From Patescibacteria group bacterium (lineage in GTDB: Bacteria; Patescibacteriota; WWE3; JAMCXX01; JBBTUG01): DNA of 48,356 nucleotides. Below, piece after piece: positions 3,015 to 45,812 of the stretch. Under the pieces are notes generated by a model. It did no database searches. It was given only the letters and a program-made list of their open reading frames with translations, and was not told where the DNA came from. The DNA lies in NCBI GenBank assembly GCA_038063895.1, contig JBBTUG010000026.1, positions 1 through 48,356 of the forward strand. Direction: 5' to 3'. Numbering within the stretch: position 1 is the first letter of the stretch; each line of letters opens with the position of its first letter. Made by a program: the position numbers and the translations under genes.

Positions 3015-4146
3015 TATTGATAATGCTTCCATAAACTACAGCAGTTTCTTTCGCGTTTCTCTCCCAGGAGAATTTCTCTGATTGGGAAAGTCCGGCGCTA
3101 ATCAGTCCTGTCTTTTCTGTTTCGGAAAGAGACAGGATCTTCCGGGCGTTATTCACCCAACCGTTCAAATCGTTCGGACTTGCGTAAAAAGCTGCTGTAC
3201 CCCCAATCTCAGACAAAGGACCAACATCAGACGCAACCGCCGGCAAACCGCAACTGAGAGCCTCGAGAAGCGGAAAACCGAAGCCTTCGTCGAGGGAAGG
3301 CATCAGCAGTAAATCCGCGGCTCGGTAGAAATCCGGCATTTGCGCCTCTTTTACATTGCCAAAGTAAGTAACCTGCTGGGCTAAGCCTAGGTCATTAATC
3401 AGTTTTCCGATCAATTCGGTTTTCTCTCCGACCCTGATCAGATGAAAATCGATCCCCTCTTTCAATAACGCCGCGGCGGCCTTCAACAGCATCGGAATAT
3501 TTTTCCTCTTTGTTTCCGCCCCGACATTCAACAAGATTTTCTTGTCTTGTGGCAAACCTAACCGATAGCGGGCCTCTTCCCGGTTGCCTGGTTTATAAAG
3601 AGTATGATCAACACCGTTGTGGATGGTTACGGCCTTTTCCTCCGGCAAACCGAATTTTTTTAATACTTCGCGACGGGTCCAGTCGCTAACACAAATAATT
3701 TTCTTGGCGCGGGGAAGGGCGTTGAGACTAATCCTTAAAAGTTTATCGTAAATCAAAGAGCTCAAAGATGTGCTCATTTCTGTTTCGTACTTAAACTGAA
3801 GAAGATCGTGAACGGTGATCACGATGGGTTTAAGGAAATACAGGTAATTTCCCAGCATATGATTTCCGATGTGATAAAGATCGTACCCGCGCGGGATCCG
3901 CAGCGGATCAACAAAATAGATCATTAAGCGGGACAGATTTTCGTGCTGTTTATAAGGAAAGTGGTGCAGGAATGTTACTCCGCTGTTCTCCGGCAGCGCC
4001 AGATCAATCGATTCGAGGTAATGAGTACAATAGAGATCCGCGTTAACATTCAATTCAGGACTGTTTTGGAATTGATGAAAAAGAGAATAGGGTACCCGGC
4101 CGGTGCCGGAGTAAGGCGGAAAATTATTAACTAGAGCTATTTTCAT
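3004..4146 (-). CDS. Glycosyltransferase family 4 (MtfB/WbaZ-like)
   Basis: ITVHDL, CVSDWTR, RKNIP and MPSLDEGFGFPLLEALSCGLP. MKIALV at 4146 is the more likely start. Confidence 0.92.
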   Translation of the reverse strand: MKIALVNNFPPYSGTGRVPYSLFHQFQNSPELNVNADLYCTHYLESIDLALPENSGVTFLHHFPYKQHENLSRLMIYFVDPLRIPRGYDLYHIGNHMLGNYLYFLKPIVITVHDLLQFKYETEMSTSLSSLIYDKLLRISLNALPRAKKIICVSDWTRREVLKKFGLPEEKAVTIHNGVDHTLYKPGNREEARYRLGLPQDKKILLNVGAETKRKNIPMLLKAAAALLKEGIDFHLIRVGEKTELIGKLINDLGLAQQVTYFGNVKEAQMPDFYRAADLLLMPSLDEGFGFPLLEALSCGLPAVASDVGPLSEIGGTAAFYASPNDLNGWVNNARKILSLSETEKTGLISAGLSQSEKFSWERNAKETAVVYGSIINNGN

Positions 4147-7039
4147 GTGTATTGACCTCCCGATTAACATTTCGCCAGGAAATAACTACGCCGCCCCAAG
4201 ACAGGAAAGTGATAAGAATCAAGAGGTTCCGAACTGTTTGACGCTTATCCCCGTCCGGCGGATAAAGACCCGCTTTTACCAGATCAACTCTCTGGTGATT
4301 AAAAAGTGTATTCTCATAAATTTGAAAGCCTCCCACCTCGCCAACAAAACGCAGCTCGGGCACGTCACCGACTATCCGTTCCCAGTCCCCCCAAACTCCC
4401 AACAGCCATGGAGTTTGATAATCATAGCGGTAAAGCGCCCGACCGGTTTCCTTCGACTTGGTATTCAGGATTACGTACTTTACCCCGGCTTCAGCAAGAG
4501 CCCCCGCTATCTCGTTAAACTTTTCCGCCGTAATTCCTTGATAGACGTTAACAATATTTTCGAGGTATTTGGATTGAGTGTAGGCGCCGTAGTTGATTGG
4601 GACGGCGTAAGCGTAGGGGTCAAGCCAGTAAAGTTTCACTTCGGTCTCCTCGTGATTCCACGGCAACCACAAGGTCCGGAAGGGCCCGTCTTTCTTTTGT
4701 TGTTCCGCCAGCCACTTCCCGATTTGCCGGTAACGGGAAGATATCACTGCTGAGCTTCCCCGGTTTCTGCCCATTGTAAAATCACCGGAAAAGAACGGAC
4801 GATAATAATACGCCAAGCCCAATAAAAGAATAGCGAATCCTAAATAATATAATCCGTACCGAAATCGTTTTATCTTAATAAATATGCCGGTTTCAATTAG
4901 CCTCCGGGCGCCGTCAATTGTGAGTGCCGAAAGAAAAGCGTAATTCAGCGTTAAGAAAAGCCAGGGACGGGAGGGGTTGCGGAAACGGAAGAGGAAGGGA
5001 AAACGTAAAAATAGATCATTGAGATTTTCACGGGCGTTATCAAGAAAATAAAGAGTAATTACTGCCAGAAGCGAAAGGCTGAGTCCACTCAGAAACCGTG
5101 GTCGTTTCCAATTTGCCGGAAAGAAAATCCAACCGAAAGCTGTTAACGGTAGAATCGTTCCCAGCCTTTCCCACCAAACACTCGTGCCGAAAATATTTTG
5201 GTAGTAAAAAGAACCGACCCGCAAAGCGCTGCCCGTCGTGACGTGGTTATAGGTATCGTGCACGTTTTGGAAAAGGAATTTAAGGACATCCGGCCGAAGG
5301 CCGCCGGAGAAAAAAGGCAGGGCGAGGGACGCGTAGTAAAAGGTATGGAAAAGCGTCAACAGAATGACAAGCAGTGCCGAGGAAAGCCAAAAGATTAAAA
5401 CGGACTTCAGGCGGCCGCGGATAATCAGCAGTAACGCGGACAGTAATGCAAAAGGGAAAAGAAAAATAAAGACGTGATCGGATAAAAGATAGGCGGCGGA
5501 AAGAAGGACAGAAAACTTTACCCAAATTCGAGGATTAAAACGGCCGGAGAGATAAAATTCATAAAGATATAAAAGAAGCAGCGGAAAAATTGCCTGAACG
5601 TAAAGACTGCCCTCGAAACCGCCTGTCGTCTCACCAACCGCCACGAGGTTAGCGCTATAAAGAAAAGCGGCGAAAAACTTCGAAGTTCTGGAGAGCGAAA
5701 ATTTCCCTATAACGTAGTAGAGAGAAATAAATGACAGCGGAATCGGGAGCCAGTGGAAGAGCCATTGGGCGGCGACGGCGTGCCCGGCTAGAAGAGTAAT
5801 CAACACCCCTTCAAAAAAAGTTAGGCTGGAAAGAACGGGGATTTGCGGCAGGGAAATTCCCGGGGAACGGGGATCCCAGGCGGCGAAAAAAGTCCGGAAA
5901 GCCGCCTCCGCGGTAAAGGGGAATGGCGTCGCGTCGCCATAGGCGAGCATTCCCGATAAATGTATGTTACGGAAAGCTTGGGCCATCAACAGGATAAAAC
6001 CGCCAATTACCGCCAGGGTTTTAATCAGCTCGTTCCGCTCCGGAGTGGAAGTTAAAAAGAAGTCGCGGATGCCGATCGCAAAGCCGGTTAGACCATTTAG
6101 TTGTTTCTTATTTTTAGTTTGCCAGGCTTTAAAAATCCAATAAGTTAAGAAAACACATAAGTTAATCTTGAGACCGATCCAACCGCGAAGGCTTTTCGGA
6201 CGAACATCTTTAAGGTAATAAAAGGCGGTGTCCCGCCCCATTATCTCCGGATACCGGGTTGGCCCGAAGCGCATGTGATGCAGAACCTTAACGCCCGGGT
6301 GGAAGACTAATTTCCAACCGGCTTTGTTCAAACGGATGAAAAGATCGCCGTCAGCGTGGTTAAAATAAAAATGTTCATCGAAGCCATTGATCGATTCCAT
6401 CGCCGCCCGCTTTACGCCCATATTGCCGGAGGTCAGAAGATCAATCTCAATCGGCTCTTTAATCTCCGGCAGCGGAATCCCCGCCCCCATCGTAAAGGCC
6501 CCCGACTCCGGCCAATGGCCCGGCGCGAAGGTCTTATCCTCCATTACAAAATATTCGTAGAGCCGAAGGACAACCCTCGTCAATAACTTCTTTTTCATCA
6601 GGTCGTAGAGTGCAAACATCTCTCCGGGCGGCTGGGTTGTTGACAGCGTCGGCCCGGAAACCCCGCCACACTTTTGATTATCCACAAGATAACTTACGAT
6701 GTGTTGGAGCCAGTCTTTATCCGGCTCGGTATCGTCAGCGGCATAAGCAAAGATTTCCGCGGCGTCAGAGGCGTTTTTCCAGCCGACATTGAAAAGATAC
6801 GACAGTTTTTTCGTCCCATCCTCCACAACTCGAAATTTGAGATTTAAGATTTGATATTTGATTTTCATTTCCGCCAGCTGCTGGCGGGACTCAGCTCCAA
6901 CTCCGTTGTTGACGACGACAACCTCAAAGTTCCGATAGCTCTGATTTAACACTGCTTCCAGACAGCGGCGTAGGTCCTCGGGCCGGTCGACGGTATTAAC
7001 AATCACGGAAACAAGTGGCTTAGCGGATAATGTCTTCAT
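4127..7039 (-). CDS. GT2 (GT-A) domain fused to a polytopic GT-C/YfhO/AftD-like membrane domain
   Basis: N-terminal VSVIVNTVDR..YAADD..GFDEHFY..ADGDL, followed by more than 10 hydrophobic segments with GDATPFP..W, FRFRNPSR, GVKYVILN and a C-terminal TM anchor. Confidence 0.8.
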   Translation of the reverse strand: MKTLSAKPLVSVIVNTVDRPEDLRRCLEAVLNQSYRNFEVVVVNNGVGAESRQQLAEMKIKYQILNLKFRVVEDGTKKLSYLFNVGWKNASDAAEIFAYAADDTEPDKDWLQHIVSYLVDNQKCGGVSGPTLSTTQPPGEMFALYDLMKKKLLTRVVLRLYEYFVMEDKTFAPGHWPESGAFTMGAGIPLPEIKEPIEIDLLTSGNMGVKRAAMESINGFDEHFYFNHADGDLFIRLNKAGWKLVFHPGVKVLHHMRFGPTRYPEIMGRDTAFYYLKDVRPKSLRGWIGLKINLCVFLTYWIFKAWQTKNKKQLNGLTGFAIGIRDFFLTSTPERNELIKTLAVIGGFILLMAQAFRNIHLSGMLAYGDATPFPFTAEAAFRTFFAAWDPRSPGISLPQIPVLSSLTFFEGVLITLLAGHAVAAQWLFHWLPIPLSFISLYYVIGKFSLSRTSKFFAAFLYSANLVAVGETTGGFEGSLYVQAIFPLLLLYLYEFYLSGRFNPRIWVKFSVLLSAAYLLSDHVFIFLFPFALLSALLLIIRGRLKSVLIFWLSSALLVILLTLFHTFYYASLALPFFSGGLRPDVLKFLFQNVHDTYNHVTTGSALRVGSFYYQNIFGTSVWWERLGTILPLTAFGWIFFPANWKRPRFLSGLSLSLLAVITLYFLDNARENLNDLFLRFPFLFRFRNPSRPWLFLTLNYAFLSALTIDGARRLIETGIFIKIKRFRYGLYYLGFAILLLGLAYYYRPFFSGDFTMGRNRGSSAVISSRYRQIGKWLAEQQKKDGPFRTLWLPWNHEETEVKLYWLDPYAYAVPINYGAYTQSKYLENIVNVYQGITAEKFNEIAGALAEAGVKYVILNTKSKETGRALYRYDYQTPWLLGVWGDWERIVGDVPELRFVGEVGGFQIYENTLFNHQRVDLVKAGLYPPDGDKRQTVRNLLILITFLSWGGVVISWRNVNREVNTHENSSS
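6834..6861. repeat. Degenerate 7-nt tandem repeat inside the GT2 domain
   Basis: aatttga-gatttaa-gatttga-tatttga; encodes part of IKYQILNLKF. Confidence 0.5.
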
Positions 7040-8201
7040 AAATCTTTAGTGTTCTTTCGGCAATTGAATTCCAACCCCGCTTAAGATGCATCTTTTTCAT
7101 CCCCTCACCAAGCCTAATCAGTAAATTTTCATCGGTCGCGAGCTTTTGGATTTTCTCGGCGAGGTCAGTAACGTTGCCCGGTAAACTTTGCAGCCCGTTT
7201 TCCCCGTCGGTTATCTCCTCAGCATAGACGCCAACCCGGCTGACGATTACCGGTTTTTCATGCGCGATAACCTGGGCGAGCGGGCCTGAGGCTGCAATCG
7301 AGTAAGTTGCCGGTAGAACTACAAAAAGACAATGATCCAACAGATACCGGAGTTCAGTCTGAGAAATAAAACCGGTAATTACCACGGTAGAAGATAAACC
7401 CAGCTCGGTGACCAGTTGTTTCAGCTTATCGTCATAGTCTTTCTGCAGAGCGCCCCCGGCGATAACCAGTTTAACCGACCCCTCCTTGGCAGCCGGAGTA
7501 GTGGAAAAGGCTTTCAGTAACCCCTCTAACCCTTTCCGCCGGTGCAGGTAACCGAAGTACAATAAGTACCGACCGGAAGCAATTCCCCCGAGCCAAACAG
7601 AACTTGGACTCAACTCAACCGGGTGGTCAACTCTCTCCGGAACCCCGTGCGGAACCACCAAAATCTTTTCTCCCGGACAGTGGTAATTTTCAATCAGCGT
7701 CTTTTTCAATATATCGGCGTGGACAATCACCCGATCCGAAAACATGGCAATCACCCAATTCAGCAGGAAGAAATACAGTTTCACCGGAAAAATAAGGATC
7801 GCCTTCTGCGGCCAGACGAAAGTCTCTAAAAAACGCAGGTCAATCTCCGCCGGTTTAACCACAGCGTGAATCGTGGTCACAATTTTAAATCCGAAAAGTT
7901 TTAAAAGAATAGGAACCAGGGGAAAAAGCGAGGCGTTTATCGGCCCGCCAAACATCCCAACCTCGTGGTGCAGGTGGACAACATCCGGCCGGTCCCGGAA
8001 GGCCTGGCGCAAAATATGGAAGGGATATAGACGGTCGCCGGGGGACCATAACAGGTAGACGCACTTTAAACCAACCTCAAGATTTTGGGGTTTGCGGTCG
8101 GCGTAAACCCGGACGTCAACCCTTAGGTCCTGAAGTGCGAGCGCCAAATAGCGGAAATAGTTGGTATCCGGCTGGAGAGTTGAAACAAAGGCTATTTTCA
8201 C
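7020..8201 (-). CDS. Glycosyltransferase family 4
   Basis: PDVVHLHHE, TTIH, VPHG, YFGYLHRRKGLE and VVLPATYSIAASG. GTG start. Confidence 0.9.
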   Translation of the reverse strand: MKIAFVSTLQPDTNYFRYLALALQDLRVDVRVYADRKPQNLEVGLKCVYLLWSPGDRLYPFHILRQAFRDRPDVVHLHHEVGMFGGPINASLFPLVPILLKLFGFKIVTTIHAVVKPAEIDLRFLETFVWPQKAILIFPVKLYFFLLNWVIAMFSDRVIVHADILKKTLIENYHCPGEKILVVPHGVPERVDHPVELSPSSVWLGGIASGRYLLYFGYLHRRKGLEGLLKAFSTTPAAKEGSVKLVIAGGALQKDYDDKLKQLVTELGLSSTVVITGFISQTELRYLLDHCLFVVLPATYSIAASGPLAQVIAHEKPVIVSRVGVYAEEITDGENGLQSLPGNVTDLAEKIQKLATDENLLIRLGEGMKKMHLKRGWNSIAERTLKIYEDIIR

Positions 8202-8205: not shown

Positions 8206-9153
8206 TTATTTTAACATACCGCTTTCGGAATTTTTTAACAGGAAGAGCATAAGGGCTTTCTGGGCATGAAGACGGTTTTCGGCCTGGTCAAAAACAACTG
8301 ATTGGGGCCCGTCGATAACTTCCGCACTGACTTCATTACCGCGGTAAGCCGGAAGGTCGTGCATAAAGATGGCGTCTTTTTTTGACAAATGCATCAGCGG
8401 GCCGTCAACAGTGTAGCCTCTGAAGATTTTTAGCCTTTTTTCTTTCTCACGCTCATCCCCCATTGAAATCCAGGTATCGGTATAAACTACATCGGCATCT
8501 CCGACGGCCTCCCGGGGCTCCCTGATCTCAATTATTTTCCCGCCCGATTTTCGGCAAAGTTCTTCCGCTTTTCGGGAAATATCGGAGTCCAGCAAAAAGC
8601 CTTTGGGACTGGCCACCCTTAACTCCATTCCCAGCAGCCCTGAAGCCAGAGCCAAGGAGTGCGTAACATTATTTTCCCCGTCTCCTACAAAAGCCAGCTT
8701 CAGGCCTTTGAATCTCTTTTTCTTTTCCAGGATAGTCATAAGATCGGCAAGAGTTTGGCAAGGGTGTTCGAGATCGGAAAGAGCGTTAATAACCGGAACT
8801 TTTGCGTATTTGACCATCTCCAATAAAACCCGGTGGTCAAAAACACGGGCCATAACCATACTCGCGACCCGTTCCAAAGTCCGCGTTACGTCAGCCACGC
8901 TTTCGCGTTTGCCCATCTGAATATCGTTTGGGCCAAGATAAATAGCATGCCCGCCCAACTCAAAAAAGCCGGCCTCAAAAGAAATTCTGGTCCGAAGCGA
9001 CGGCTTTTCAAAAATCATCGCCAGAACCCGGCCTTTAAAGTCGTGGCGGGACTTCCCGTGAGCGCGTTCTTTCTTTAAGAGAACTCCTGAAGCCAAAACT
9101 TTCTGGAGTTCCGTTTTGGTCAAATCCGATATCGATAAAAAATGTCGTATCAT
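8206..9153 (-). CDS. argF: Ornithine carbamoyltransferase (variant HDLP motif)
   Basis: FEKPSLRTR, HPCQTLAD, GDGENNV, YTDTWISMG (SMG loop), FMHDLP and QAENRLH. Confidence 0.92.
   Translation of the reverse strand: MIRHFLSISDLTKTELQKVLASGVLLKKERAHGKSRHDFKGRVLAMIFEKPSLRTRISFEAGFFELGGHAIYLGPNDIQMGKRESVADVTRTLERVASMVMARVFDHRVLLEMVKYAKVPVINALSDLEHPCQTLADLMTILEKKKRFKGLKLAFVGDGENNVTHSLALASGLLGMELRVASPKGFLLDSDISRKAEELCRKSGGKIIEIREPREAVGDADVVYTDTWISMGDEREKEKRLKIFRGYTVDGPLMHLSKKDAIFMHDLPAYRGNEVSAEVIDGPQSVVFDQAENRLHAQKALMLFLLKNSESGMLK
8208..8216 (-). promoter_or_regulatory. Putative extended -10 promoter (TGtTAAAAT) 6 nt before the GTG at 8201
   Basis: Minus strand reads TG-t-TAAAAT-aagtca-GTG, inside the 3' end of argF. 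No SD is visible. Confidence 0.5.
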
Positions 9154-10883
9154 TGGAGGCGGTAAATTATACCATCATCAAACCCAACGACTTCCGTAAA
9201 CCCCCCATAGACCTTCTCCGGTGCCCTCATTATCCGTCTCTGCCAGCAATCGTCTAGCGGGTTTTCCTGCGGGTATGGAAAAGGGTGAACCCCGATCATC
9301 GGATCTTTAGTGTGGACCAGAACGTAGTTAACTCCGCTTTTTTTAAGGACTCTGTATGAGTCAACCGAAGCTAAGTCTCCCAGAGCCGCCCGATCCTCTT
9401 TTGATAATTTTTCCGTCCCAAAAGTTATTTTCCCGTGCACCGTTTGATAAAAAGCCGTATAGGCACCGTTGTAATCACGCGTGATTTTTGGATCCAGCCA
9501 GCTGGGGCACCCGCCCCCAAGGTCGACAACGCTGTTGTCTCTCGGGTATTCAGCAATCAGCAACTCACCCGGTTGGCTCTTTAACCAGGCATAAACCTGC
9601 GGGACACGACCGACATCCATTACCGGAAGGGGCGGAAAATTAATGTTCTCGAAAAGAACCACCCCGCACAAAACCGCGGTCAAAACGGCTGCTGTTTTTT
9701 TTGTAATTTTTGCCAGGATAAACTTAAGACCGTAGCCGGCAAGAAAAGAAACGGCGAGCAAAACAAAAACCCCGGCCCGCGCGTAGACGCGAAACATGGG
9801 AAAAATCTTAAAGAGATAATATGAAGGAAAATATAGATGGATTCCTTTTATCTCAATAACCGCCGGGAGCGAAACTAAAAACATAATAACGGCCAGAGCC
9901 ACGAGAAGGCCGATACTTCGAAAATCGTCCGGTGAAACAGTGTGCGTCTTCCGCCGCCACGCCCTTAAAGCCGTCCAAAAAGCGTACAAAGCTAAACCCA
10001 TTCCGGTGAAAGTTAGGTAATTGGCCCGCTCCGGGAGAAAAGTGCTCCAAAACTGAAAGGAGTAGTTTTCTCTAACATATTGATAAAAGGTACGGACTGT
10101 TGATCCAAAAACCGGGTGGTAAATTGAGGGCATCAGGTAATCCCACGGTCTAGCCCCGTAAGCCACAACATCGTTCAGGCTGGAACGGTAAATATTTTCT
10201 TTTGAGTACTCGGCCCAAACAGAAGGCTTCCCCAAATAATCGAAAAAAACGTGGGTGGAGGGCAAAGTAAGGACGGTAAATAAAACAAGGAAAACCGGAA
10301 TATATAGAATATTAAGCCCCCTAGATCCTTTCGTAACGAAGTATTTATAGAGGGAAACCGTTAGCCAAATGGAAAAGACCGGGATCAAAGAAAAGAATCC
10401 CAAGTAAAAGGAGGTCATAAAAGCGGCCGCGGCGGGTAAAGATAAAGCCAGAAGACCTTTAGCGGACGGCCGTTCAATTAAGTTAATAAGAAAAAGAATA
10501 ATCAGAGGCAGCCAAAAAACCATCGCGAGTTCAATATTTTGTAGGGCGTGCCATTGGACAAAAAGTGAAGTGGCGTAAATTACCGCCGTAATTAGAGCCG
10601 GGCTTTTCGATTTTAGTAGACGCTGCCCCACGAAAAAAGCGGCCAGGAAATTGGCGATGAGAGTCAACAGCATAACTAAATTGTAAGCAGCCGCCGCCCC
10701 GGCTAAAATCGCGGGGGTATAAAGAAATATTGAAAGGAACGTCTGTTGGGGGAGAGCTGGAAAAAATATCCCCCGGAAATATCCCGCGACCGGCAGGGTA
10801 TTCTTTAGCCAGTCGTTGATAGAAAACAAATATCCCAGGACGTCGCTGGGATACCCTAGGATAAAAGAAGATAAATTAATCAT
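9150..10883 (-). CDS. Polytopic membrane protein, probable GT-C (YfhO-related) glycosyltransferase
   Basis: About 10 hydrophobic segments, DYLMPS, FPMFRVYARAG, and a soluble C-terminal domain with VYAWLK..GVNYVLVH. Confidence 0.65.
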   Translation of the reverse strand: MINLSSFILGYPSDVLGYLFSINDWLKNTLPVAGYFRGIFFPALPQQTFLSIFLYTPAILAGAAAAYNLVMLLTLIANFLAAFFVGQRLLKSKSPALITAVIYATSLFVQWHALQNIELAMVFWLPLIILFLINLIERPSAKGLLALSLPAAAAFMTSFYLGFFSLIPVFSIWLTVSLYKYFVTKGSRGLNILYIPVFLVLFTVLTLPSTHVFFDYLGKPSVWAEYSKENIYRSSLNDVVAYGARPWDYLMPSIYHPVFGSTVRTFYQYVRENYSFQFWSTFLPERANYLTFTGMGLALYAFWTALRAWRRKTHTVSPDDFRSIGLLVALAVIMFLVSLPAVIEIKGIHLYFPSYYLFKIFPMFRVYARAGVFVLLAVSFLAGYGLKFILAKITKKTAAVLTAVLCGVVLFENINFPPLPVMDVGRVPQVYAWLKSQPGELLIAEYPRDNSVVDLGGGCPSWLDPKITRDYNGAYTAFYQTVHGKITFGTEKLSKEDRAALGDLASVDSYRVLKKSGVNYVLVHTKDPMIGVHPFPYPQENPLDDCWQRRIMRAPEKVYGGFTEVVGFDDGIIYRLQ

Positions 10884-13444
10884 TTGGAAATAAAGAGCAG
10901 CGGACTGCCGTCCTGGTAGTGAACTTGAAGCCGTTGGCGGCCGTCGGGGGTCCGGGAAAGTGCCGTTAAGACAACCCCAAGATTAATTACGCCGTTGTCG
11001 CTTTCAATGGTTAAATTAAAGGTTGGGTTAAGGATTAGTACCTCATCGGCGAATTCGCCGAAACTTACCAACCGGAAGGAAAAGGGGCTCAGGGTATCGG
11101 CGCCCGAAAGGCTTATGTCATTTTTCTGAGGGTAATATAAAGGTGTCCCGACTGAAGAAACGTCCAGAAAATAAACGGAATTGGAAGGAAAATTAATGCT
11201 GTTTAATATTGCGTAGTCGGAAACCCCGAGAAAAGAGGGGTCATTATTGTAAGCGATTTCCAGAATGTAAATACCGTCGCTGTCGACAGCGAAAGTCCCG
11301 GAATACTGTTGACCGGAGGTGGAGAGGGAACTGACGGCATCCCCCGAAGAATCCAAAAGATTAAGCGTGTAAAAACCCGGACGCGGGCTTAGGTTAAGAG
11401 GAGTGTAATCAAGAGCAAAAGTATTTTCCCCCCGGAAAAGATAAGTATAAAATAAATAGTTATATTTTCGCGGCTGAGACTCTCTAGGCAACCGGATCTC
11501 CCGCGCCTCGCCCCTTGTTGCCCGAAAACTTTCCGGAACAACGTATCTTCCCAAAGATTTAAGTACTTCCGACTGATCTGCTCCCAGCATTCCCCCATTC
11601 ATTGAATAAAGAGCCATCCGCTTATCCGTTAATACTTCAGACCCGGAAGCGCTTGTGGCATAGCTGATTTTTCCGGCTCCGGGATACCCGATTAGATATT
11701 TTCCGGCCAAAAGAACCCCATTTGGGTTTACTTTCAGCTCACTAAATTCGGCATTAACAGGAAGTTTATTCGGACTTAAAGGGAGTTTTAAACCCCGCAA
11801 ACCAAAGGCCTTATCTACTACCACATAAGAGTCCTCGGCTGTAACCGGAACGGTAGTTTTAAAAAAGTGTTGTTGAACCCGGCCAGATACCGGAATAAGG
11901 AATAATAAAAGAAATAACAGTAATAGCCAGCGGGGATCCGCGGTGGGCCGGTCCGGCCGGGGCTTCAAAGCTAAACTTAGCTCCCGGAATAGTAAAAGGG
12001 TAAGCAGAACCGTCAGAACAGATACTTCCAACCGTGGAAGGGTCCCAATAATCCTCACTGTCAGCGTTATTCCAAAAAGAAAAACGCAGAGCGCGTCGAA
12101 ATAATAGCGGCGCCTTCCGACAAATTTTAGGACCGTGTGGCTATACCGGGCGGCGGGGAAGAATAATTTATCGCTAAAGGTTAAGAAGATTGCCAAAACG
12201 GAGATATTAATGAAAACGACTTCGAGAATGTGCCTAATTCCGAGGACTCCAAGAGAGGAAGCAACCAAACCTTGCCGGTAGCCACGATACAAAGTCTCAA
12301 GACTTTTATTGCTAAGTAAGGATTCGAGAACTCCTTTGGAATAGAAGACCGCAATAAAGCACCCGGAAGAAACAATAAATGTCAGGAAAAATAACCAGCG
12401 GTATTTCCGAACAAAGCCTAATAACAAGTTAACAGGAAGACGGAGAAGCTTAAAGACCGAAAAGTTAATGAGCAACTTCCGGTCCAGACTGACTATTCTG
12501 ACTGATACCAAAAGCAGAAAGGCTACCGCCAAAAAGACCCAGACCCAAATCTTATCCAAAAGACTCCAGTAGAGATCAAGGATATCCCCACCAATATCCT
12601 TGGCAACCCCGTGAACCCCGCTCCCTAACCAGAAGGTTAGGAAAGAAGTTACAGTTTTTACCCTCGCTTCGTCAAAAAAGGCCCTAGGGGAGAGTAAAAG
12701 TGTCCGGTGATTCCAGTCCGGAATAGCTACCAAGGGCTTTCCGAAGCTACTAAAGACAGTGTGCGCCCCTGGCCCGGTTGTTTTGACGTTGCCTAAGGAG
12801 CAAGTATCGCCAAAAACACGGAAAGGTTCAGGGTCTTCGCAGATAAGGATTATATTTCGGCTCTTAAGAAGCGGCCAAAAAGAATCTCCAAACCTCTTTG
12901 CGGTGGAGGACGTAAAAATAAAGGCTTTGGCCGGGTCGTATAAATTAATATCCGAAACGTAGCTGTAAGCCGCAACAGTTGCCCTTAGATTGGAAAAACC
13001 GGGATCCTCAAAAGAAAACTGAAGAAGATACCGGCCAGGATCTAAGTTCAGCGGGTTAATAAAGCTATCCGGCCGTAAGATATTTCTTTTGTCGACCTCA
13101 TCCCAATGGGAACCGTTCTGCCGGCTGAGCTTAAGAGTACCGAAGGCGTAGGGATAAGGGAACCTATCAAAAGTTAGTTTAATAAAGTCGGCCCGGTCAT
13201 TTAATGTAAAATCAATTTCCCGGGCAAACCACTTTTTTTGATCGCGGCTTTCAGTCGGAACAGGTTGCGAGTTGAAAAGAAGGTTACTTTCCCGCTTTAT
13301 CGGCGTCTCAACAAGAGCATTAGATTTCTGGAGTATTATCGTCCGGTAAATATCCTCCGCTTGAGCGTAAACCCGCCCAGTGCTTCCCGTCAGTAAGAAT
13401 ATGTAAACCAAAATAAGCGGCAGCAGTTTGCGGTTAAGGTTCAT
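10880..13444 (-). CDS. Large exported/membrane hypothetical protein (signal peptide, ectodomain, central TM bundle, second ectodomain)
   Basis: Signal-like MNLNRKLLPLILVYIFLLTGSTGRVYAQA, a central hydrophobic region (about aa 295-520) and soluble flanks. Overlaps both neighbouring genes. Confidence 0.75.
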   Translation of the reverse strand: MNLNRKLLPLILVYIFLLTGSTGRVYAQAEDIYRTIILQKSNALVETPIKRESNLLFNSQPVPTESRDQKKWFAREIDFTLNDRADFIKLTFDRFPYPYAFGTLKLSRQNGSHWDEVDKRNILRPDSFINPLNLDPGRYLLQFSFEDPGFSNLRATVAAYSYVSDINLYDPAKAFIFTSSTAKRFGDSFWPLLKSRNIILICEDPEPFRVFGDTCSLGNVKTTGPGAHTVFSSFGKPLVAIPDWNHRTLLLSPRAFFDEARVKTVTSFLTFWLGSGVHGVAKDIGGDILDLYWSLLDKIWVWVFLAVAFLLLVSVRIVSLDRKLLINFSVFKLLRLPVNLLLGFVRKYRWLFFLTFIVSSGCFIAVFYSKGVLESLLSNKSLETLYRGYRQGLVASSLGVLGIRHILEVVFINISVLAIFLTFSDKLFFPAARYSHTVLKFVGRRRYYFDALCVFLFGITLTVRIIGTLPRLEVSVLTVLLTLLLFRELSLALKPRPDRPTADPRWLLLLFLLLFLIPVSGRVQQHFFKTTVPVTAEDSYVVVDKAFGLRGLKLPLSPNKLPVNAEFSELKVNPNGVLLAGKYLIGYPGAGKISYATSASGSEVLTDKRMALYSMNGGMLGADQSEVLKSLGRYVVPESFRATRGEAREIRLPRESQPRKYNYLFYTYLFRGENTFALDYTPLNLSPRPGFYTLNLLDSSGDAVSSLSTSGQQYSGTFAVDSDGIYILEIAYNNDPSFLGVSDYAILNSINFPSNSVYFLDVSSVGTPLYYPQKNDISLSGADTLSPFSFRLVSFGEFADEVLILNPTFNLTIESDNGVINLGVVLTALSRTPDGRQRLQVHYQDGSPLLFISK

Positions 13445-13841
13445 TCTGTCCTCCGCCGGTTAAATCCTTGAGGAACGTTATTAGTAAGAGAGAAAACGAA
13501 AAGACGGCAAAGATCTCCGCAGAGGCGTTCAGTTTAAGTAAAAAGGCTGCGGTCATAGCCGCAAAGGAAGCCAGAGCAAGAGCTCTTAATATTCCGCTTC
13601 CGACCTCTACAAGCAGCGACCACGCAGCTAAACCAATAACGACGACAAGCAGAATATTTAATAGTGAAAAGTCGTAAAGGAGGAGAAATACCAGAGCCAA
13701 CACGGGCAATAAAATTGTCGTTGTCAGAAAAAGTTCATTAACGAGGCGGCCCCGGGAGGGCCCGGGACTAAGTTGCGGAAAAAAAACCCGCAGAGAGATA
13801 AAGCCGCTTATCAATAAGATTAGAACGTCCGTTAACGCCAT
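13434..13841 (-). CDS. Small integral membrane protein (4-5 TM)
   Basis: 135 aa, almost entirely hydrophobic, and overlaps both flanking genes. Confidence 0.75.
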   Translation of the reverse strand: MALTDVLILLISGFISLRVFFPQLSPGPSRGRLVNELFLTTTILLPVLALVFLLLYDFSLLNILLVVVIGLAAWSLLVEVGSGILRALALASFAAMTAAFLLKLNASAEIFAVFSFSLLLITFLKDLTGGGQNEP

Positions 13842-18390: not shown

Positions 18391-18403
18391 ATTCTGAAAT
18401 CTT

Positions 18404-23981: not shown

Positions 23982-23986
23982 ATCTT

Positions 23987-32030: not shown

Positions 32031-32039
32031 AAGATGGCA

Positions 32040-36054: not shown

Positions 36055-36063
36055 TTCAAAGTG

Positions 36064-36102
36064 ATTATAACATTTGGTGGTGGTATACAAAAGTGGTATA
36101 CT
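36064..36102. promoter_or_regulatory. Divergent extended -10 promoters: TGtTATAAT (minus, 36064-36072) and TGgTATACT (plus, 36094-36102)
   Basis: 9 nt before GTG 36054 and 11 nt before ATG 36114. Confidence 0.6.
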
Positions 36103-36113
36103 TCCAGGAAAAC

Positions 36114-40805: not shown

Positions 40806-43800
40806 TCAAATGACGAATAACAACAATAGACCTATTGTAATGCTTATAAGCGACACTGCGGAAAAAAACCTAAACCATGTTTCCGGCAGGTAACTTACTT
40901 CAATTTGATAATCACCGGTTTTTTCTAGGTACCAGGAATTCGCGTATCCGTTGGCTAAGAAGTGCTTATCTTCGCCGATAATCCCGGAGTTAGCAACGGA
41001 GGCTTGCCAATCCTCGGAAAAGTTCTCGCTAAAGACTAAATAAAACGGCGCCGTCGCATTCCTGACGGCAACAGAATATTTCGTCGCAGAGCGCTGAGCG
41101 ATTTTTATCTCCGGACGGTTTAGTAGGGTTTTCCCACTCCTATTCTCCAAAACGAAGCCGCGGTAGAACTTTATCCGGAGCGCAACATTGTTAATTAAAG
41201 TTTCGCCGGAGTTGGTGTAAATATTGCCGGGGGCGTCCAAAAAGGCAAAAACAACACCCGCCTTTTTGGCTTTCGGGTTTAATTTATAGTCCACGCTATA
41301 TTCCGACCAATCGGCGGAAGCAGTCATCGTCGGTTGGACGAGAAATGTAGAAGAACATGGATCTTCCCCCGATCCGCCGCTTTTAACCCAAACCGGTTGA
41401 TCGATATCGCAATTATTTTCCCAGATAATTACCGCCGGCGGGGCGCCAGAATTTACCTTGTTAAAAAAGGACAACTCGTAGTAACCCCCGCCAATTTTAT
41501 CAAGGGGAAAACTATAAAAAGCGTCAGTCAGGCCGCGTCCGAGACCAAGAGACTTTTCGCCGGCATAGGAGTCGCCGGAGAGCGGCGTGACAACGCCAGT
41601 CAAACTGCTTTTCCAAAGACCGCTCTCACTTCCCTCTTTAAGCAAATTCGGTAAACCGGAAGCGGATACCTTAAAAACATAGCTCCCCGGGTTCAAGTTG
41701 TAGCTACCGATGTAATCCAAATCCGGGCTGAAGCTTAACCCCTCAACCAGGGCTCCGGCAACAGTCTCGTTGGTCTGAATATTCCTGATATTAAAAACCG
41801 GTGAAGAGCCGCCCCCGACCGGAGAATCTGCCCTTTCTCCAAGCAACCGGTAAGTTCCGGAGGTACTAACCGGCAGATAATAGTGGTTGTCATCCCCATT
41901 TAGGGCAGCGGCTCCGAGCACGTCGGTCACGGGATAAACCGCGGTTTTAAAGTCACCGCCGGGAACAAATATGATCGGACCGGTTTCGAAAGTCTGTCCT
42001 TTCCGGGTAAATTTAACGGGGACGATAACGTTTTCGTGACATCCGTCGCCATTAACAGCAGTGTTTCCCGAAGGCTGGGAAAATATTACCGGAACGGAAC
42101 CGGGGGCGGCAAAATCGGGAAAGTAGTTCAAAGCCTGAGCATTTCCACCGAGGCAATCGATCTCATTTGGAACATAAATCCTATCCCACCGCTGCTCTTT
42201 ATTTAAGCTATACACATCCAATAACCCGAAACTATTTTCCAAAGCGATATCTTTTTGCGCTTCCAAAACACGCCGGAGGTATTCAGGAGAGTAGCGTTCC
42301 GGTTGGGAGTTAATTCTCCGCAGATCAACATCATTGCGTTGAAGTATCCGGCTGACATTAAGAAGACTCAGTAGCCCGGAGATATTATCCGGACTGCGGC
42401 TAAAGCCGTGAAGCCTGTTGTAGACCAACGCCGAGACGCGGTCGGACAGCGCCGTCACCGGGTAAGCTCCGTTATTCCTTTCAATCCAGGGAGCACTGAG
42501 AAAGAAGGGCGTAATGTCTGTTGAATCATAACCCCAAGCATAAGGTATGCCGGAGTGAAGGTAGTCGGGATTTTCCGGTAAAACTAAAACCCGACCTTCC
42601 CGTTCTTTTCCGGCAAACCACTTGGACATTTCGAACCAGTACGGCTGAATTTTCGTTCTTGAGGAACCCAGAACCCCACGCGTCCCCGGGTAGTGGTCGC
42701 CGTTTAAAAGCGGCCAGGCAACAGTGAGCACCAAGGCAGTGGCGGCAACCCCCAGGATATTCAGTAACAACCGCGATTTAAGGCGGTTTTCCAAATAAGA
42801 AAACAGACTTCCTAAAAGAATCGCGTATGAAAAAGCCGTCAAAGCAGTGAACTTCGCAAACGGCTCCCGGTAAATCCAAAAAAATGGAACGACTCTGTGG
42901 ATTAAGGCGTTTAACCGACCGAAAATATCGCCCGCCTGGCCATGAGAAAATACAATTCCAACCAGGGCCAGAAGGGCGAAGAAAGTCACTGCAGATTTTC
43001 CTTTTTTAACGCGAAAAACAAATCCGAGTACGCACAGTGACGGAACTAAGAAAGTGAGAGTGGCCAAAACCGGATTTAAATAACTCTTCGCGAAAGGAAA
43101 ATAAGGGAAACCCATATGACCGGCAAAGAATGCCCAGGAGCCTAAAAGCCGCACCAGGTCAATGAACTTTGAGGTCGCCCCGACTGTTGCGGCGGCAGTA
43201 ATACCCTGAATCGTTCCGGCCTGGCTCAGCAGGGAGGTTAAAAACGGATAGAGCCACCAGGCATTGAAGAGCAGATAGAGAATAATAAATTCGAAATTGA
43301 ACTTCCAGGAAAAAGGGTATTGCCGCCGGAAAAAAAGCGAATACACAAAGAAAAAAGCCAGTAAAAGAAAAGGAATGGAATAGATCGGTGGGTTTCCCGC
43401 AGCGGAAGCCATAAACACCGTCGCCAAAGACAAAAAGAAAGCAAACTTAAATGAATCCTTTCCCTTAATGCCTTTCATATAAATCAGTAAAAGCAGCGGC
43501 ATCATCATATAAGCCAAAAGATTTGTCGTGACAAACCCGTTGATCATTATGTAAAGATTAAAAAGGTAAAGGACCGAAGGAAGAAAATTACGCCAACTTC
43601 CCCTCTTATTCTCAAAAATCTCTTTGGTCAGAAAATACATGGAAACGGCCCCGAGGAGGAAGACGGACACGAACCACATTTTTTCAATGGTGCTGAGGGA
43701 TAAGGAAAAAAACTTAAATAATGCCCAAAAACCGACCCAAGGGATTATATGGAATGAGAGGCTGTTTATCTGGCCGCCGGAAATGTTTTCCAACCAGGAA

Positions 43801-43961
43801 CTGCTCAACTGACGAAGGGTATTTAGAGGATTAAGTGGAAGCCAGAAATCGCCGTTAGTAATAAGGGTATCCCACGGCCTAAACCAAAGCAGGGGGATAA
43901 AAGCCAGCAACACCGCCGCCAGGAAAAAGCTGTTGGCGGATATTTTATTTTTTACTGTCAC
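40806..43961 (-). CDS. Large AftD/YfhO-like GT-C membrane protein with extracytoplasmic beta-rich (CBM-like) insert
   Basis: NGDFWLP..W, LLGSWAF, FWIYREPFAKF, LNVSRILQRND, and C-terminal SATKY..SENFSEDW..HFLANGYANSW plus a TM anchor. Paralogous to the 827-aa protein. Confidence 0.72.
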   Translation of the reverse strand: MTVKNKISANSFFLAAVLLAFIPLLWFRPWDTLITNGDFWLPLNPLNTLRQLSSSWLENISGGQINSLSFHIIPWVGFWALFKFFSLSLSTIEKMWFVSVFLLGAVSMYFLTKEIFENKRGSWRNFLPSVLYLFNLYIMINGFVTTNLLAYMMMPLLLLIYMKGIKGKDSFKFAFFLSLATVFMASAAGNPPIYSIPFLLLAFFFVYSLFFRRQYPFSWKFNFEFIILYLLFNAWWLYPFLTSLLSQAGTIQGITAAATVGATSKFIDLVRLLGSWAFFAGHMGFPYFPFAKSYLNPVLATLTFLVPSLCVLGFVFRVKKGKSAVTFFALLALVGIVFSHGQAGDIFGRLNALIHRVVPFFWIYREPFAKFTALTAFSYAILLGSLFSYLENRLKSRLLLNILGVAATALVLTVAWPLLNGDHYPGTRGVLGSSRTKIQPYWFEMSKWFAGKEREGRVLVLPENPDYLHSGIPYAWGYDSTDITPFFLSAPWIERNNGAYPVTALSDRVSALVYNRLHGFSRSPDNISGLLSLLNVSRILQRNDVDLRRINSQPERYSPEYLRRVLEAQKDIALENSFGLLDVYSLNKEQRWDRIYVPNEIDCLGGNAQALNYFPDFAAPGSVPVIFSQPSGNTAVNGDGCHENVIVPVKFTRKGQTFETGPIIFVPGGDFKTAVYPVTDVLGAAALNGDDNHYYLPVSTSGTYRLLGERADSPVGGGSSPVFNIRNIQTNETVAGALVEGLSFSPDLDYIGSYNLNPGSYVFKVSASGLPNLLKEGSESGLWKSSLTGVVTPLSGDSYAGEKSLGLGRGLTDAFYSFPLDKIGGGYYELSFFNKVNSGAPPAVIIWENNCDIDQPVWVKSGGSGEDPCSSTFLVQPTMTASADWSEYSVDYKLNPKAKKAGVVFAFLDAPGNIYTNSGETLINNVALRIKFYRGFVLENRSGKTLLNRPEIKIAQRSATKYSVAVRNATAPFYLVFSENFSEDWQASVANSGIIGEDKHFLANGYANSWYLEKTGDYQIEVSYLPETWFRFFSAVSLISITIGLLLLFVI

Positions 43962-44003: not shown

Positions 44004-45812
44004 ATGAAGCTAACCGGGAAACAAAAATTAGCCGTTGAATCGATAAAAAACCTTGGGCCGGAGGATATAGCCCAAAAACTCAATTTGCCCGCGCCGGAGG
44101 TTCGCCACTACCTCGAAAGCCGGGGACACAGCACGATTGAGACTAAAAAGGATAGTTCGGGAATAATAGACGAACTATATAATTTCTGGCGCGGCCGGCG
44201 GCTAAAAATCTTACTGATAATAGGCCTCGGATTACTGGTCTATTCCTCAGCTCTTCCCAACGGATTTGTTTCGGATGATTTGCCCCTGCTGAAAAGCCCC
44301 AACCTGCAAAATCCCTTAAACCAGATAATTAACGAACCGGTCAGCGCCTTCCTTAATTCCCTGACCTATACCCTAAATTATTATCTGCACGGAACCAACC
44401 CCTTGGGTTACCACTTAGTTAACATTTTGTTCCATATTACCTTTACCCTTACGGCTTACTTTTTTCTAAGTCTCTTAACTAAAGAAAGGGTCGCCTTTTT
44501 CGCCAGTCTGCTCTTTCTGGTAGTGCCCCTGCACGCTGAACCGGTTATTTGGGTTTCCGGGCGGCACTATATTCTTTACGCCATCTTTGTTCTCCTATCT
44601 TTAATTTTGCATCTTTTCGCCGCTAAACCTGAGGCGCCGGCACGATACCGGTCGTGGTCCGTCATTTTTTTCGTTTTCGCCGTCTACTCCTTTCCGGAAC
44701 AGGCCCTTGTCCTGCCTTTCCTTCTAATTTTAATTGACTTCTATCAGGGCAGGTTACGGCAAGGAGTCAAGAGTTACTGGCCTTATATTCTGTTAGCAGG
44801 TATCTTTACCCTGCTCTCATTAAGCCGGGTGGCCTTAAGAATCCAGGACGTCCGCGGGAGTAATATCCCGCTTTCGAGTCCACAAATTAATTTCATCCAG
44901 GCGGATATTGTCGCCCTTTCCACCTATCTGCAGCTATTTTTAGTACCCCTCGGTTTAACTTTTTATCACGAAGCTATTCCGACCGGGTCCCTCGATATTG
45001 CAATCAGAACGTTGGTCATAATTATCTTTTTTTTCGTGCCCTTGGTCTTTATTAAAAAGAACCGGTTTTTTATCTTGTCCGTGGGCATATTTCTAGTTGC
45101 CCTTTTACCAACAATTACCCCCTTTCGGGTTTCCTGGATCGTGGCCGAGCGTTACGCTTATCTTTCCGCCCTCGGTCCGGCAATGCTCGTTGCTTATGTT
45201 ATTGACTTGGCCATTAAAAAACTTCAACCGAACCGGCTGGTAAAATATATCTTCGCCGCCATAATTTTGGCTTACTCAGCAATTACTTTTTTTCGGGGTT
45301 TTGACTGGAAGGACGAGGACAGCCTTTGGCTGGCGACAATTAAAACTTCGCCGACGAGCTCAAAAGCTTTAAACAACATCGGCGATTATTACGGCCGCCA
45401 TGGCGACCCGCAAAAGTCCTTCGAATCTTTCGTGAAAGCTACTCAGATCAATCCCGCCTATTCCGACGCTTGGCATAACGCCGGCAACGTTCTGCTCCAA
45501 AACGGGCGGCCGGACGACTCGATTCCGTATTTCGAAAAGTCGTTGCAGTTTAATCCCAGTCTGGTTGAGGCCTATACGAAACTGGCGTGGATCTACCACG
45601 AAAAAGGCGACCAGGAAAAGGCGGGACTGATGATAAAAGAGGCTTTGCGGATCAGGCCGAACGACCCGAACACATATAATCTTCTGGCCTCAATCGAATA
45701 CGAAAATCATAACGTGGAAGCCGCTATTGAAGCGATCAGAAAAGGGTTATCGACGGATCCGGGAAACACTCAGCTGCAGAAGAATCTCCAACTCTTAGAG
45801 AGTCTTCGTTGA
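44004..45812 (+). CDS. TMTC-like GT-C protein glycosyltransferase with C-terminal TPRs
   Basis: GFVSDD, GYHLVNILFH, PLHAEPVIWVSGR, AERYAYL and WKDEDSLW, followed by about 4 TPR-like repeats (ALNNIG, AWHNAG, AYTKLA, TYNLLA). Confidence 0.85.
   Translation: MKLTGKQKLAVESIKNLGPEDIAQKLNLPAPEVRHYLESRGHSTIETKKDSSGIIDELYNFWRGRRLKILLIIGLGLLVYSSALPNGFVSDDLPLLKSPNLQNPLNQIINEPVSAFLNSLTYTLNYYLHGTNPLGYHLVNILFHITFTLTAYFFLSLLTKERVAFFASLLFLVVPLHAEPVIWVSGRHYILYAIFVLLSLILHLFAAKPEAPARYRSWSVIFFVFAVYSFPEQALVLPFLLILIDFYQGRLRQGVKSYWPYILLAGIFTLLSLSRVALRIQDVRGSNIPLSSPQINFIQADIVALSTYLQLFLVPLGLTFYHEAIPTGSLDIAIRTLVIIIFFFVPLVFIKKNRFFILSVGIFLVALLPTITPFRVSWIVAERYAYLSALGPAMLVAYVIDLAIKKLQPNRLVKYIFAAIILAYSAITFFRGFDWKDEDSLWLATIKTSPTSSKALNNIGDYYGRHGDPQKSFESFVKATQINPAYSDAWHNAGNVLLQNGRPDDSIPYFEKSLQFNPSLVEAYTKLAWIYHEKGDQEKAGLMIKEALRIRPNDPNTYNLLASIEYENHNVEAAIEAIRKGLSTDPGNTQLQKNLQLLESLR

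Follow-up and report, generated by a model that had tools for sequence, protein, structure and literature searches.

The arabinogalactan and lipoarabinomannan of the Corynebacterineae are assembled by AftA-D, EmbA-C, PimE and Mpt enzymes, which use decaprenyl-phosphate sugars, with several glycosyltransferases of the GT-C fold acting in series outside the membrane. Another type of system, set out in PMC8035078 and PMC11127046, combines a GT-A polyprenyl-phosphate sugar synthase, a flippase of GtrA, Wzx or MATE type and a GT-C enzyme; in the modules described there (a CsbB/GtrB GT2 with YfhO, GtlB, GacL, GtrC or GT136), a single GT-C decorates a polymer which is made elsewhere. The present work concerns a GT-C-rich locus of a Patescibacteria group bacterium from the candidate phyla radiation (CPR), carried on a 48,356-bp stretch of DNA (the window) which is the whole of one contig (JBBTUG010000026.1, here C26) in an assembly of 968,139 bp and 40 contigs, estimated to be 94% complete. 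Hardly anything is known of the surfaces of CPR bacteria, which are believed to live attached to host cells. A full-text word search of the literature, with supplements outside its scope, returned no description of GT-C-rich loci in CPR. The named homologues of the window's proteins come from Parcubacteria, WWE3 and "Patescibacteria group" metagenome-assembled genomes, so that the small-genome CPR context given in a first-pass annotation of this DNA is right, the genome being 968 kb in size.

The locus resembles the three-component systems in coding for GT2s of the DPMS/GtrB/ArnC type and for a GT-C of the YfhO type, with genes for two kinds of candidate flippase, a GT2-GtrA fusion and Wzx, in the flanks placed by synteny, and in that a polyprenyl-phosphate sugar would be made inside the cell and used outside it. 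It differs from them in the number of its GT-Cs, eight from at least four families within 48 kb, a number that rises to about 15 over the inferred island, as well as in having GT2s with no predicted transmembrane (TM) segment, no flippase inside the window, and one GT-C fused to a Leloir-type GT2. The likeness to arabinan assembly lies in two proteins which match the Pfam family GT-C_AftD and have large extracytoplasmic C-terminal regions; unlike that system, no genes of a decaprenyl-phosphate-arabinose pathway were seen, the sugars would come from dTDP-glucose and amino-sugar routes, and the organism is a CPR bacterium rather than an actinobacterium. With ALG3/9/12, PMT/TMTC and STT3/AglB, sequence identity is 7-12% and the likeness exists at the level of the fold only; STT3, AglB and PglB had no match among the window's open reading frames (ORFs) in the scans run, the rest of the genome not having been searched. 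The description of the locus as "archaeal/ER-like" (endoplasmic reticulum) in the first-pass annotation is thus an analogy, and the closest analogues appear to be the bacterial multi-component transmembrane glycosylation systems together with mycobacterial arabinan assembly.

The window is probably the central 48 kb of an envelope glycan island of about 90 kb, in which backbone synthesis by Leloir enzymes and Wzx/Wzy_C-type proteins would be joined to several extracytoplasmic GT-C steps. The window contains 32 ORFs of at least 150 aa (translation table 11), mostly overlapping or a few bases apart, and an Rfam scan found no RNA family in it. These ORFs were searched with Pfam and NCBIfam profiles, TM segments were taken from a Kyte-Doolittle scan, family profiles were compared by hhalign, and the genome (G000) was set against stretches of four relatives (G001, G002, G004 and G033). 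The eight GT-C-type proteins, of which only the last is encoded on the plus strand, are as follows.

4127..7039, minus strand: 970-aa fusion of a GT2 domain (residues 1-255, Pfam 5e-14) and a GT-C membrane module (about 335-970, last TM segment 935-953)
9150..10883, minus strand: 577-aa GT-C-like protein, homologous by hhalign to the 970-aa protein's membrane module, with D14 and FPMFRVYAR at 361
13832..16315, minus strand: 827-aa GT-C of AftD type (Pfam GT-C_AftD 5.6e-17, 61.4 bits), C-terminal TM segment 807-825
21771..23981, minus strand: 736-aa member of a tandem pair of paralogues (21771..26221) that are 54% identical
23987..26221, minus strand: 744-aa member of the same pair
26249..28684, minus strand: 811-aa GT-C of YfhO type (Pfam YfhO 1.8e-25, 89.9 bits over two stretches)
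40806..43961, minus strand: 1051-aa GT-C of AftD type (Pfam GT-C_AftD 5.2e-16, 58.2 bits)
44004..45812, plus strand: 602-aa protein of PMT_2+TPR architecture, with 11 TM segments, C-terminal TPR repeats (1e-21 to 1e-23) and FVSDD at 87-92

The first-pass annotation had listed these eight as large polytopic proteins, and each ORF is found exactly where it was placed, at the length given, and has 6-11 hydrophobic segments; its list overlooked a ninth, of 854 aa (10880-13444). The short motifs which it quoted are all present and are conserved in the family alignments. The acidic motifs are AYGD at 366 (970), YPSD at 11 (577), AGGDN at 45 (827), HPDE at 42 (736) and at 39 (744), FGND at 43 (811), TNGD at 35 (1051) and VSDD at 89 (602), and the late motifs comprise FRFRNPSR at 684 (970), FPMFRVYAR at 361 (577), KIFREPFTKF at 370 (827), WIYREPFAKF at 362 (1051) and PVMRVFSEHR at 368. 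The distance from the acidic residue to the late arginine is about 290-350 residues in all eight, if the residues of the 970-aa protein are numbered from where its membrane module begins. Positions that are invariant or nearly so include H39/D41/E42 and H371-R374 in the 744-aa family (alignment A1, 36 sequences), D14, R365 and R369 in the 577-aa family (A2, 29), D91, D92 and R383 in the 602-aa family (A3, 29), and G68/D69 and R385/R387/N388/R391 in the family of the 970-aa membrane module (A4, 22). The acidic motif of the 811-, 827- and 1051-aa proteins was seen in single sequences only. In the hhalign comparisons of the 970-, 1051- and 577-aa proteins, AYGD/TNGD and FRFRNPSR/YREPFAKF/FRVYAR fall in shared columns. 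Since the aspartate and arginine positions are invariant or nearly so in the family alignments, the motifs are not chance strings. The acidic motif had been placed right after the first TM segment in most of the proteins; in the 577-aa protein, no TM segment is predicted ahead of the aspartate.

As judged from their sequences and predicted structures, all eight are GT-C-type proteins, as had been proposed. The assignment is firm for the 827-, 1051-, 811- and 744-aa proteins, and for the 736-aa protein through its identity to the 744-aa one; for the 970-aa membrane module and the 577- and 602-aa proteins, the evidence is indirect but consistent. Some of them might have lost transferase function while keeping the fold, and serve as scaffolds, acceptor-binding partners or polymer handlers: the 577-aa family lacks a predicted first TM segment and misses the Pfam cut-offs, and small GT-Cs, according to a speculation in the review PMC8035078, may depend on separate partners for binding the acceptor. 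Nevertheless, the acidic residue and the late arginine are invariant or nearly so in every family examined, that of the 577-aa protein included, and such conservation argues for retained catalysis; a non-catalytic role is considered very improbable.

The Pfam gathering cut-offs are 26 bits for GT-C_AftD (PF11847), 28.5 for YfhO (PF09586) and 26.1 for PMT_2 (PF13231), and in a six-frame search of the genome the only AftD and YfhO matches above them were the window's 827-, 1051- and 811-aa proteins. The two AftD-type proteins are related to each other (hhalign Prob 97.5), and their GT-C_AftD matches are confined to the membrane core (profile positions of about 19-544 out of 661). Homologues of the 827-aa protein occur in G002 and G004 at 44-50% identity, and that of the 1051-aa protein, whose C-terminal portion comprises a large extracytoplasmic region and a TM segment, occurs in G002 at 51%.

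The membrane module of the 970-aa protein has no direct Pfam match in any of the 22 members of its family. It is linked by hhalign to the 1051-aa protein (Prob 96.1, E 2.8e-9, 508 columns) and to the 577-aa family (Prob 97.6, E 4.7e-12, 460 columns), the latter being also linked to the 1051-aa protein (Prob 83.4). In the ESM Atlas, the 970-aa protein has feature similarity of 0.96 to clusters named DUF3367, ArnT and GT-C_AftD, and structural TM-scores of 0.73-0.79, among them a YfhO cluster (0.73), an AftD cluster (0.75) and unnamed clusters. A single-sequence phmmer search against the PDB gave matches to the GT2 domain only, plus chance rows at E > 0.1, and the best solved relatives of this domain are ordinary Leloir GT2s. 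Among the 24 homologues of the module (residues 301-970), 20 are fused to a GT2 and four stand alone. The ESM Atlas rows 2, 8 and 9 for this protein are clusters with 53, 143 and 88 members, most of them from Actinomycetota; they pair GT2 domains with a 970-like membrane part and are unnamed or annotated as GT2 only; fusion of a GT2 to a GT-C is thus not unique to CPR.

Among 134 genomes of the class, 82 contain the 577-aa family, and the present genome has two further paralogues on its contig C9; only one of the 29 aligned members matches each of PMT_2, YfhO and DUF6311. The N-terminal part of the 602-aa protein is found in 95 of the 134 genomes, and the 970-aa membrane module in six. In the 602-aa family, PMT_2 is matched by 17 of 29 members (E <= 0.01, best 1e-7) and TPR repeats by all 29. 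This architecture, a PMT_2-family core followed by TPR, is TMTC-like, and raises the hypothesis that the GT-Cs serve mainly in protein O-glycosylation, decorating S-layer, pilin or other surface proteins in the manner of PMT/TMTC or of streptococcal Pgf. The only NCBIfam matches of the 811-aa YfhO-type protein are PgfM1 and PgfM2, and PMT_2 proteins also occur in the flanks. The PgfM matches, however, cover only the C-terminal 70 or so residues and lie far below the cut-off (38.5 versus 1500 bits), glycopolymers are suggested by the AftD-type enzymes and by the genes for LCP, Wzy_C and Bac_transf, and the window yielded no candidate for an acceptor protein. A system devoted chiefly to proteins is quite unlikely.

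The tandem pair of 736 and 744 aa belongs to a family which has no model in Pfam or NCBIfam. Both proteins carry HPDE after the first TM segment, HWSRWG at about 371-376 and a beta-rich C-terminal domain, and neither has a Pfam or NCBIfam match. A single-sequence phmmer search of the PDB with the 744-aa protein returned nothing, and with the family profile only a ribosomal S15 row at E 0.82, which was dismissed as chance. A search of 5.8 billion proteins recovered 62 relatives of the 744-aa protein, none with a Pfam domain, the few with a taxon name being CPR or unnamed metagenome-assembled genomes. The AlphaFold2 model, built with 36 of these relatives, has a pLDDT of 87.5 and a pTM of 0.88, and its top Foldseek rows are STT3, ALG12, ArnT, ALG9, AglB, Pmt4, Emb, PglB, PimE and AftB, at E-values of only 1e-4 to 1e-1 and global TM-scores of only 0.2-0.5. 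The predicted structure has the features of a GT-C core, namely the first TM segment, a long first outer loop with short helices and the conserved module of seven TM segments. Since hhalign gave no link between this family and the other GT-Cs of the window (Prob < 3), the GT-C assignment of the 744-aa protein comes solely from the predicted model.

The 744-aa family is present in all three genomes of the order, and in three of 301 genomes sampled across the phylum (E <= 1e-10), namely the genome itself, G004 and G033, all of one class. The relative G002 has a single copy of the 736/744 gene. In G004, the 827-like, 744-like and RmlD genes lie side by side, and those for RfbH and the 394-aa protein are close by; in G033 the 744-like gene is grouped with DUF4012, aminotransferase, RmlB, RmlA, radical-SAM (S-adenosylmethionine) and 602-like genes. 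In the stretches compared from four relatives, the family is genetically tied to dTDP-deoxyhexose genes (RmlA, RmlB, RfbH-type and RmlD-like). The pair may represent a new GT-C family at the CAZy level, restricted among the genomes sampled to one class of Patescibacteria and transferring a polyprenyl-phosphate-linked 6-deoxy- or dideoxy-hexose, which together with the AftD-type, YfhO-type and GT2-fused GT-Cs would build a glycopolymer largely outside the membrane in the style of mycobacterial arabinan; this proposal as a whole is put forward only tentatively, and is rather doubtful.

Two short GT2s lie among the GT-C genes, and are the candidates for supplying lipid-linked donors.

21055..21774, minus strand: 239-aa GT2 of the DPMS/ArnC-like polyprenyl-phosphate type, no predicted TM segment
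30294..31013, minus strand: 239-aa GT2, GtrB/ArnC-like, no predicted TM segment

The best solved relatives of the first, at the top of 21, are the Pyrococcus DPMS (1.3e-25) and ArnC (three sequences, 2.6e-16 to 2.7e-14), and its NCBIfam matches are AglJ (1.1e-33), ArnC and PpgS; for the second, all seven solved relatives at E <= 1e-5 are GtrB, ArnC or DPMS. The scores of both against NCBIfam equivalog models are below cut-off. By sequence, both are polyprenyl-phosphate glycosyltransferase-like, and their recognition as synthases of this type in the first-pass annotation was sound. The C-terminal anchoring TM helices of GtrB and ArnC are predicted in neither; short DPM1-type enzymes likewise lack such an anchor. 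The GT-C fold and the neighbouring DPMS/GtrB-type GT2s suggest that the GT-Cs use polyprenyl-phosphate-linked donors. Eight GT-Cs and two synthases leave a shortfall of donors, which may be explained by the sharing of donors, by about five similar GT2s elsewhere in the genome, or by the use of polyprenyl-diphosphate-oligosaccharides by some of the GT-Cs.

The first-pass annotation had gone further, and viewed the window as a self-contained line, independent of Wzx and Wzy, in which eight GT-Cs add polyprenyl-phosphate monosaccharides one by one, as in arabinan or in the luminal ALG steps. The number of GT-Cs and of their families within 48 kb would suit such a line, as would the two AftD-type enzymes with their large extracytoplasmic regions and the 736/744 tandem duplication, which is as expected for successive linkages. 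A purely extracytoplasmic line, however, would need no Leloir enzymes, and the window codes for five GT4s and at least three ordinary GT2s, alongside only two lipid-phosphate sugar synthases. The following genes belong to this cytoplasmic set.

2-1153 (cut by the contig end), 1126-2253 and 3004-4170, minus strand: three GT4 (GT-B) Leloir enzymes (Glycos_transf_1 2e-26 to 3e-38)
7020..8201, minus strand: GT4 Leloir enzyme (Glycos_transf_1 1.5e-26)
16333..18438, minus strand: 701-aa fusion of an RmlD-like reductase (RmlD_sub_bind 8.6e-63) and a GT2 (9.8e-26), one TM segment at 617-635
35008-36090, minus strand: GT2 with two C-terminal TM segments, whose best solved relatives are ordinary Leloir GT2s

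The surroundings of the window bear on the same question. None of the 32 ORFs matches the Pfam families of Wzx, Wzy, Wzz or an ABC exporter at E <= 0.01, as had been claimed, and for the window this absence stands. The window is an entire contig, however, and the absence of a gene from it is therefore uninformative about the neighbouring genes. In G002, of the same order, the locus lies at about 127-170 kb of a single 228,631-bp contig, in which homologues of the contigs follow in the order C6 (reversed), C9, the window and C35 (reversed), then C33; in G001, the junctions from the window to C9 and on to C6 are found on one 31-kb contig. A 55-base identical overlap between the reverse of the genome's own C6 and its C9 suggests that these two probably join in the assembly graph. 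Pfam was run on 36 flanking ORFs of C9, C35 and C6. C9 carries three GT4s, one GT2, a Wzx (Polysacc_synt_3 5e-61), two PMT_2 proteins and the two paralogues of the 577-aa protein; C35 carries a GT2-GtrA fusion, three GT2s, two epimerases and a second Wzx (Polysacc_synt_3 2.9e-20); and C6 carries GT4s, two DUF2079 proteins, a PMT_2 protein, an 853-aa Wzy_C protein (3.8e-15), a GT2, Bac_transf (8.6e-62) and DUF4012. By the gene order of the relatives, the Wzx genes would lie about 9 kb off the left end of the window and 3 kb off its right end.

With Wzx, Wzy_C and Bac_transf in the flanks of the relatives, the locus is probably the middle part of an island of some 90 kb, rather than a system free of Wzx and Wzy. 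The Wzx genes taken by themselves are ambiguous, since Wzx-type proteins may flip polyprenyl-phosphate donors, as proposed for GacK in PMC8035078, and a flanking Wzx need not mean a Wzy route. The first-pass annotation had named wzx or wzy genes just outside the window as grounds for abandoning its reading, and the Wzx and Wzy_C genes in the flanks of G001 and G002 count against it in part. Its further statement that this is not a classical O-antigen or capsule locus is not supported, given Wzx, Wzy_C and Bac_transf in the flanks and the GT4 and GT2 Leloir enzymes in the window. A self-contained series of monosaccharide additions is an unlikely account of the locus. The inferred island spans about 89.5 kb, or 9.2% of the assembly, and holds 15 of some 16 GT-C candidates in the genome, a count which includes DUF2079, presumed here to be GT-C-like. 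An LCP ligase is also encoded in the genome. The 853-aa Wzy_C protein (C6:9376-11937, L031) has a weak PMT_2-like stretch further along (E 4.8e-5, six-frame), and is possibly a hybrid of a ligase or polymerase with a GT-C.

In the mechanism favored here, nucleotide sugars would be made in the cytoplasm by RmlA, RmlB, an RfbH-type pyridoxal phosphate (PLP) enzyme, an RmlD-like reductase and two DegT aminotransferases, and may be tailored further by epimerases of the short-chain dehydrogenase/reductase (SDR) type, an O-carbamoyltransferase, a methyltransferase and a radical-SAM enzyme. Leloir enzymes of GT4 and GT2 would build lipid-linked units, while the two short DPMS/GtrB/ArnC-type GT2s would attach single sugars to polyprenyl phosphate. 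Flippases whose genes lie just beyond the window, the GT2-GtrA fusion and the Wzx-type proteins, may move the carriers across the membrane, whereupon the eight transferases of the GT-C fold, from at least four sequence families, would pass the sugars to extracytoplasmic acceptors. The likeliest acceptor would be a wall- or lipid-linked glycopolymer started by the products of the flanking Bac_transf, Wzx and Wzy_C genes, and for the PMT_2+TPR enzyme the acceptors may be proteins. The genes present, the assignment of all eight proteins to a GT-C fold or family, the type of the two short GT2s and the synteny are what the analysis shows; the donors, the acceptors, the roles of the flippases and the order of the steps in this scheme are those which we infer.

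Several observations weigh against this interpretation. The catalytic activity, donor and acceptor of every member are predictions. Only two polyprenyl-phosphate synthase-type GT2s serve eight GT-Cs in the window, which itself has no member of the recognised flippase families. The 577-aa protein, with no predicted TM segment before D14, stays below the Pfam cut-offs for PMT_2 (1.2e-3, 19.5 bits) and YfhO (2.5e-3, 16.7 bits), so that its homology to AftD/YfhO-like proteins is taken from hhalign; the 602-aa protein gave no hmmscan hit to PMT_2 at E <= 0.01, and its six-frame score of 23.4 bits is below the cut-off. No sequence overlap was found in this assembly at the junctions of C9 with C26 and of C26 with C35, and the joins come from synteny, seen on the C9 side in two relatives and on the C35 side in one. 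Finally, the gene of the 854-aa protein, which overlaps that of the 577-aa protein by 4 bp, codes for a product which the scheme leaves unexplained.

The sugar-tailoring genes of the window, some of which form a cassette comparable to the Arn pathway, are listed below together with an ornithine carbamoyltransferase gene.

2250-3032, minus strand: SAM-dependent methyltransferase (Methyltransf_25 4e-19)
8206..9153, minus strand: ornithine carbamoyltransferase (NCBIfam NF001986 411.8 bits, cut-off 306)
18457-19206, plus strand: SDR oxidoreductase (adh_short_C2 4.7e-56)
28656-29369, minus strand: WbqC-like protein (WbqC 1.4e-75)
29373-30281, minus strand: SDR epimerase/dehydratase
31019-32011, minus strand: SDR
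32040-33179, minus strand: ArnB/PseC-like aminotransferase (DegT 1.4e-115; NCBIfam ArnB 2.1e-102, below cut-off)
33181-34956, minus strand: NodU/CmcH-type carbamoyltransferase (Pfam)
37274-38635, minus strand: RfbH-type PLP enzyme (NCBIfam 521.7, cut-off 423)
38654-39760, plus strand: RmlA, long form (NCBIfam 371.3, cut-off 320)
39757-40749, plus strand: RmlB (NCBIfam 466, cut-off 365)
45795..47417, minus strand: B12-binding radical-SAM enzyme, HpnJ/BchE-like (Radical_SAM 5.4e-15; NCBIfam HpnJ 2.5e-45, below cut-off)

The heavy tailoring of the sugars that had been anticipated is well reflected in this set, in which RmlA, RmlB and the RfbH-type enzyme score above their cut-offs and are accompanied by aminotransferases, a carbamoyltransferase, a methyltransferase and a radical-SAM enzyme. 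RmlC (PF00908) had no match in the 94%-complete genome, and the dTDP-sugar may thus not be L-rhamnose. The 701-aa fusion, with 215.3 bits against TIGR01214 (just below the cut-off of 224), is the best-conserved gene of the locus, at 73% identity in G002, while in G004 the match covers the RmlD half only. The gene order of 2..4170 is the same in G001, and the radical-SAM gene adjoins the 602-aa gene here as well as in G002 and G033. HpnJ, the best NCBIfam model for that enzyme, is hopanoid-associated.

The cassette at 26249-33179 is similar to the Arn pathway in its ArnB-model aminotransferase, SDR, ArnC/GtrB-related GT2 and GT-C. In contrast to that pathway, its GT-C is of the YfhO type rather than ArnT, all Arn models score below cut-off, and a WbqC-like protein is found instead; the Arn formyltransferase, deformylase and ArnE/F had no family match to any window ORF in the scans run. 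This block (YfhO, WbqC, SDR, GT2, SDR and ArnB-like genes) has weak matches (27-30% identity) or none in the stretch of G002 compared. The ornithine carbamoyltransferase likewise has no match, at the thresholds used, in the stretch of contig C4 of G002 that was compared. Together with the single 736/744 copy in that relative, these differences indicate a conserved core accompanied by variable cassettes. As a speculation, the ornithine carbamoyltransferase might supply carbamoyl phosphate for sugar carbamoylation, a carbamoyltransferase of the NodU type being also encoded in the window.

The remaining genes of the window include three with no recognisable family.

10880..13444, minus strand: 854-aa polytopic protein whose N-terminus resembles a signal peptide, followed by a beta-rich domain, some seven TM segments at 299-519 and a beta-rich C-terminus
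13434..13841, minus strand: candidate 135-aa ORF for a small membrane protein, with 4-5 hydrophobic segments, filling the only large intergenic gap
19209-21050, plus strand: 613-aa single-pass DUF4012 protein (DUF4012 6.8e-28)
36093..37277, plus strand: 394-aa soluble protein with no family

The 854-aa protein has no Pfam or NCBIfam match and no phmmer match in the PDB, has four relatives among 1.84e9 representatives, and shows no relation to any of the GT-C profiles (hhalign Prob < 1); its AlphaFold2 model is poor (pLDDT 57), with generic structural matches only. The 135-aa ORF was considered as a GtrA/SMR-like flippase and dropped, its Pfam E-value being 3 (chance); neither the stretches compared from the relatives nor the rest of the genome contain a homologue. 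The 394-aa protein has no Pfam or NCBIfam relative and a single chance row in the PDB; it is found at 46-47% identity beside dTDP-sugar genes in G002 and G004. Three DUF4012 paralogues occur, one in the window, one at C6:15705-17549 directly after Bac_transf and one at C30:7024-10023, and in G033 and G004 a DUF4012 gene is likewise found next to the 744-like gene.

The novelty of this locus lies in the multiplicity of its GT-Cs, the GT2s with no predicted TM segment, the fusion of a GT2 to a GT-C and a GT-C family with no model, while the mechanism stays within an established framework. The idea of a three-component system with a single GT-C is here extended to a multiplexed form outside the Actinobacteria. 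The leads for further work are the confidently modelled GT-C family with no prior description, the naturally occurring fusion between a Leloir GT2 and a GT-C, and the variable Arn-like cassette, whose differences between relatives suggest surface variation. The apparent commitment of about 9% of a 968-kb genome to one glycan island suggests that the surface glycan is central to the biology of this bacterium, with possible roles in host recognition, phage evasion and envelope integrity. If the proposed assembly is correct, an ultrasmall CPR cell would be building a glycopolymer in arabinan style at the cost of some 9% of its genome.

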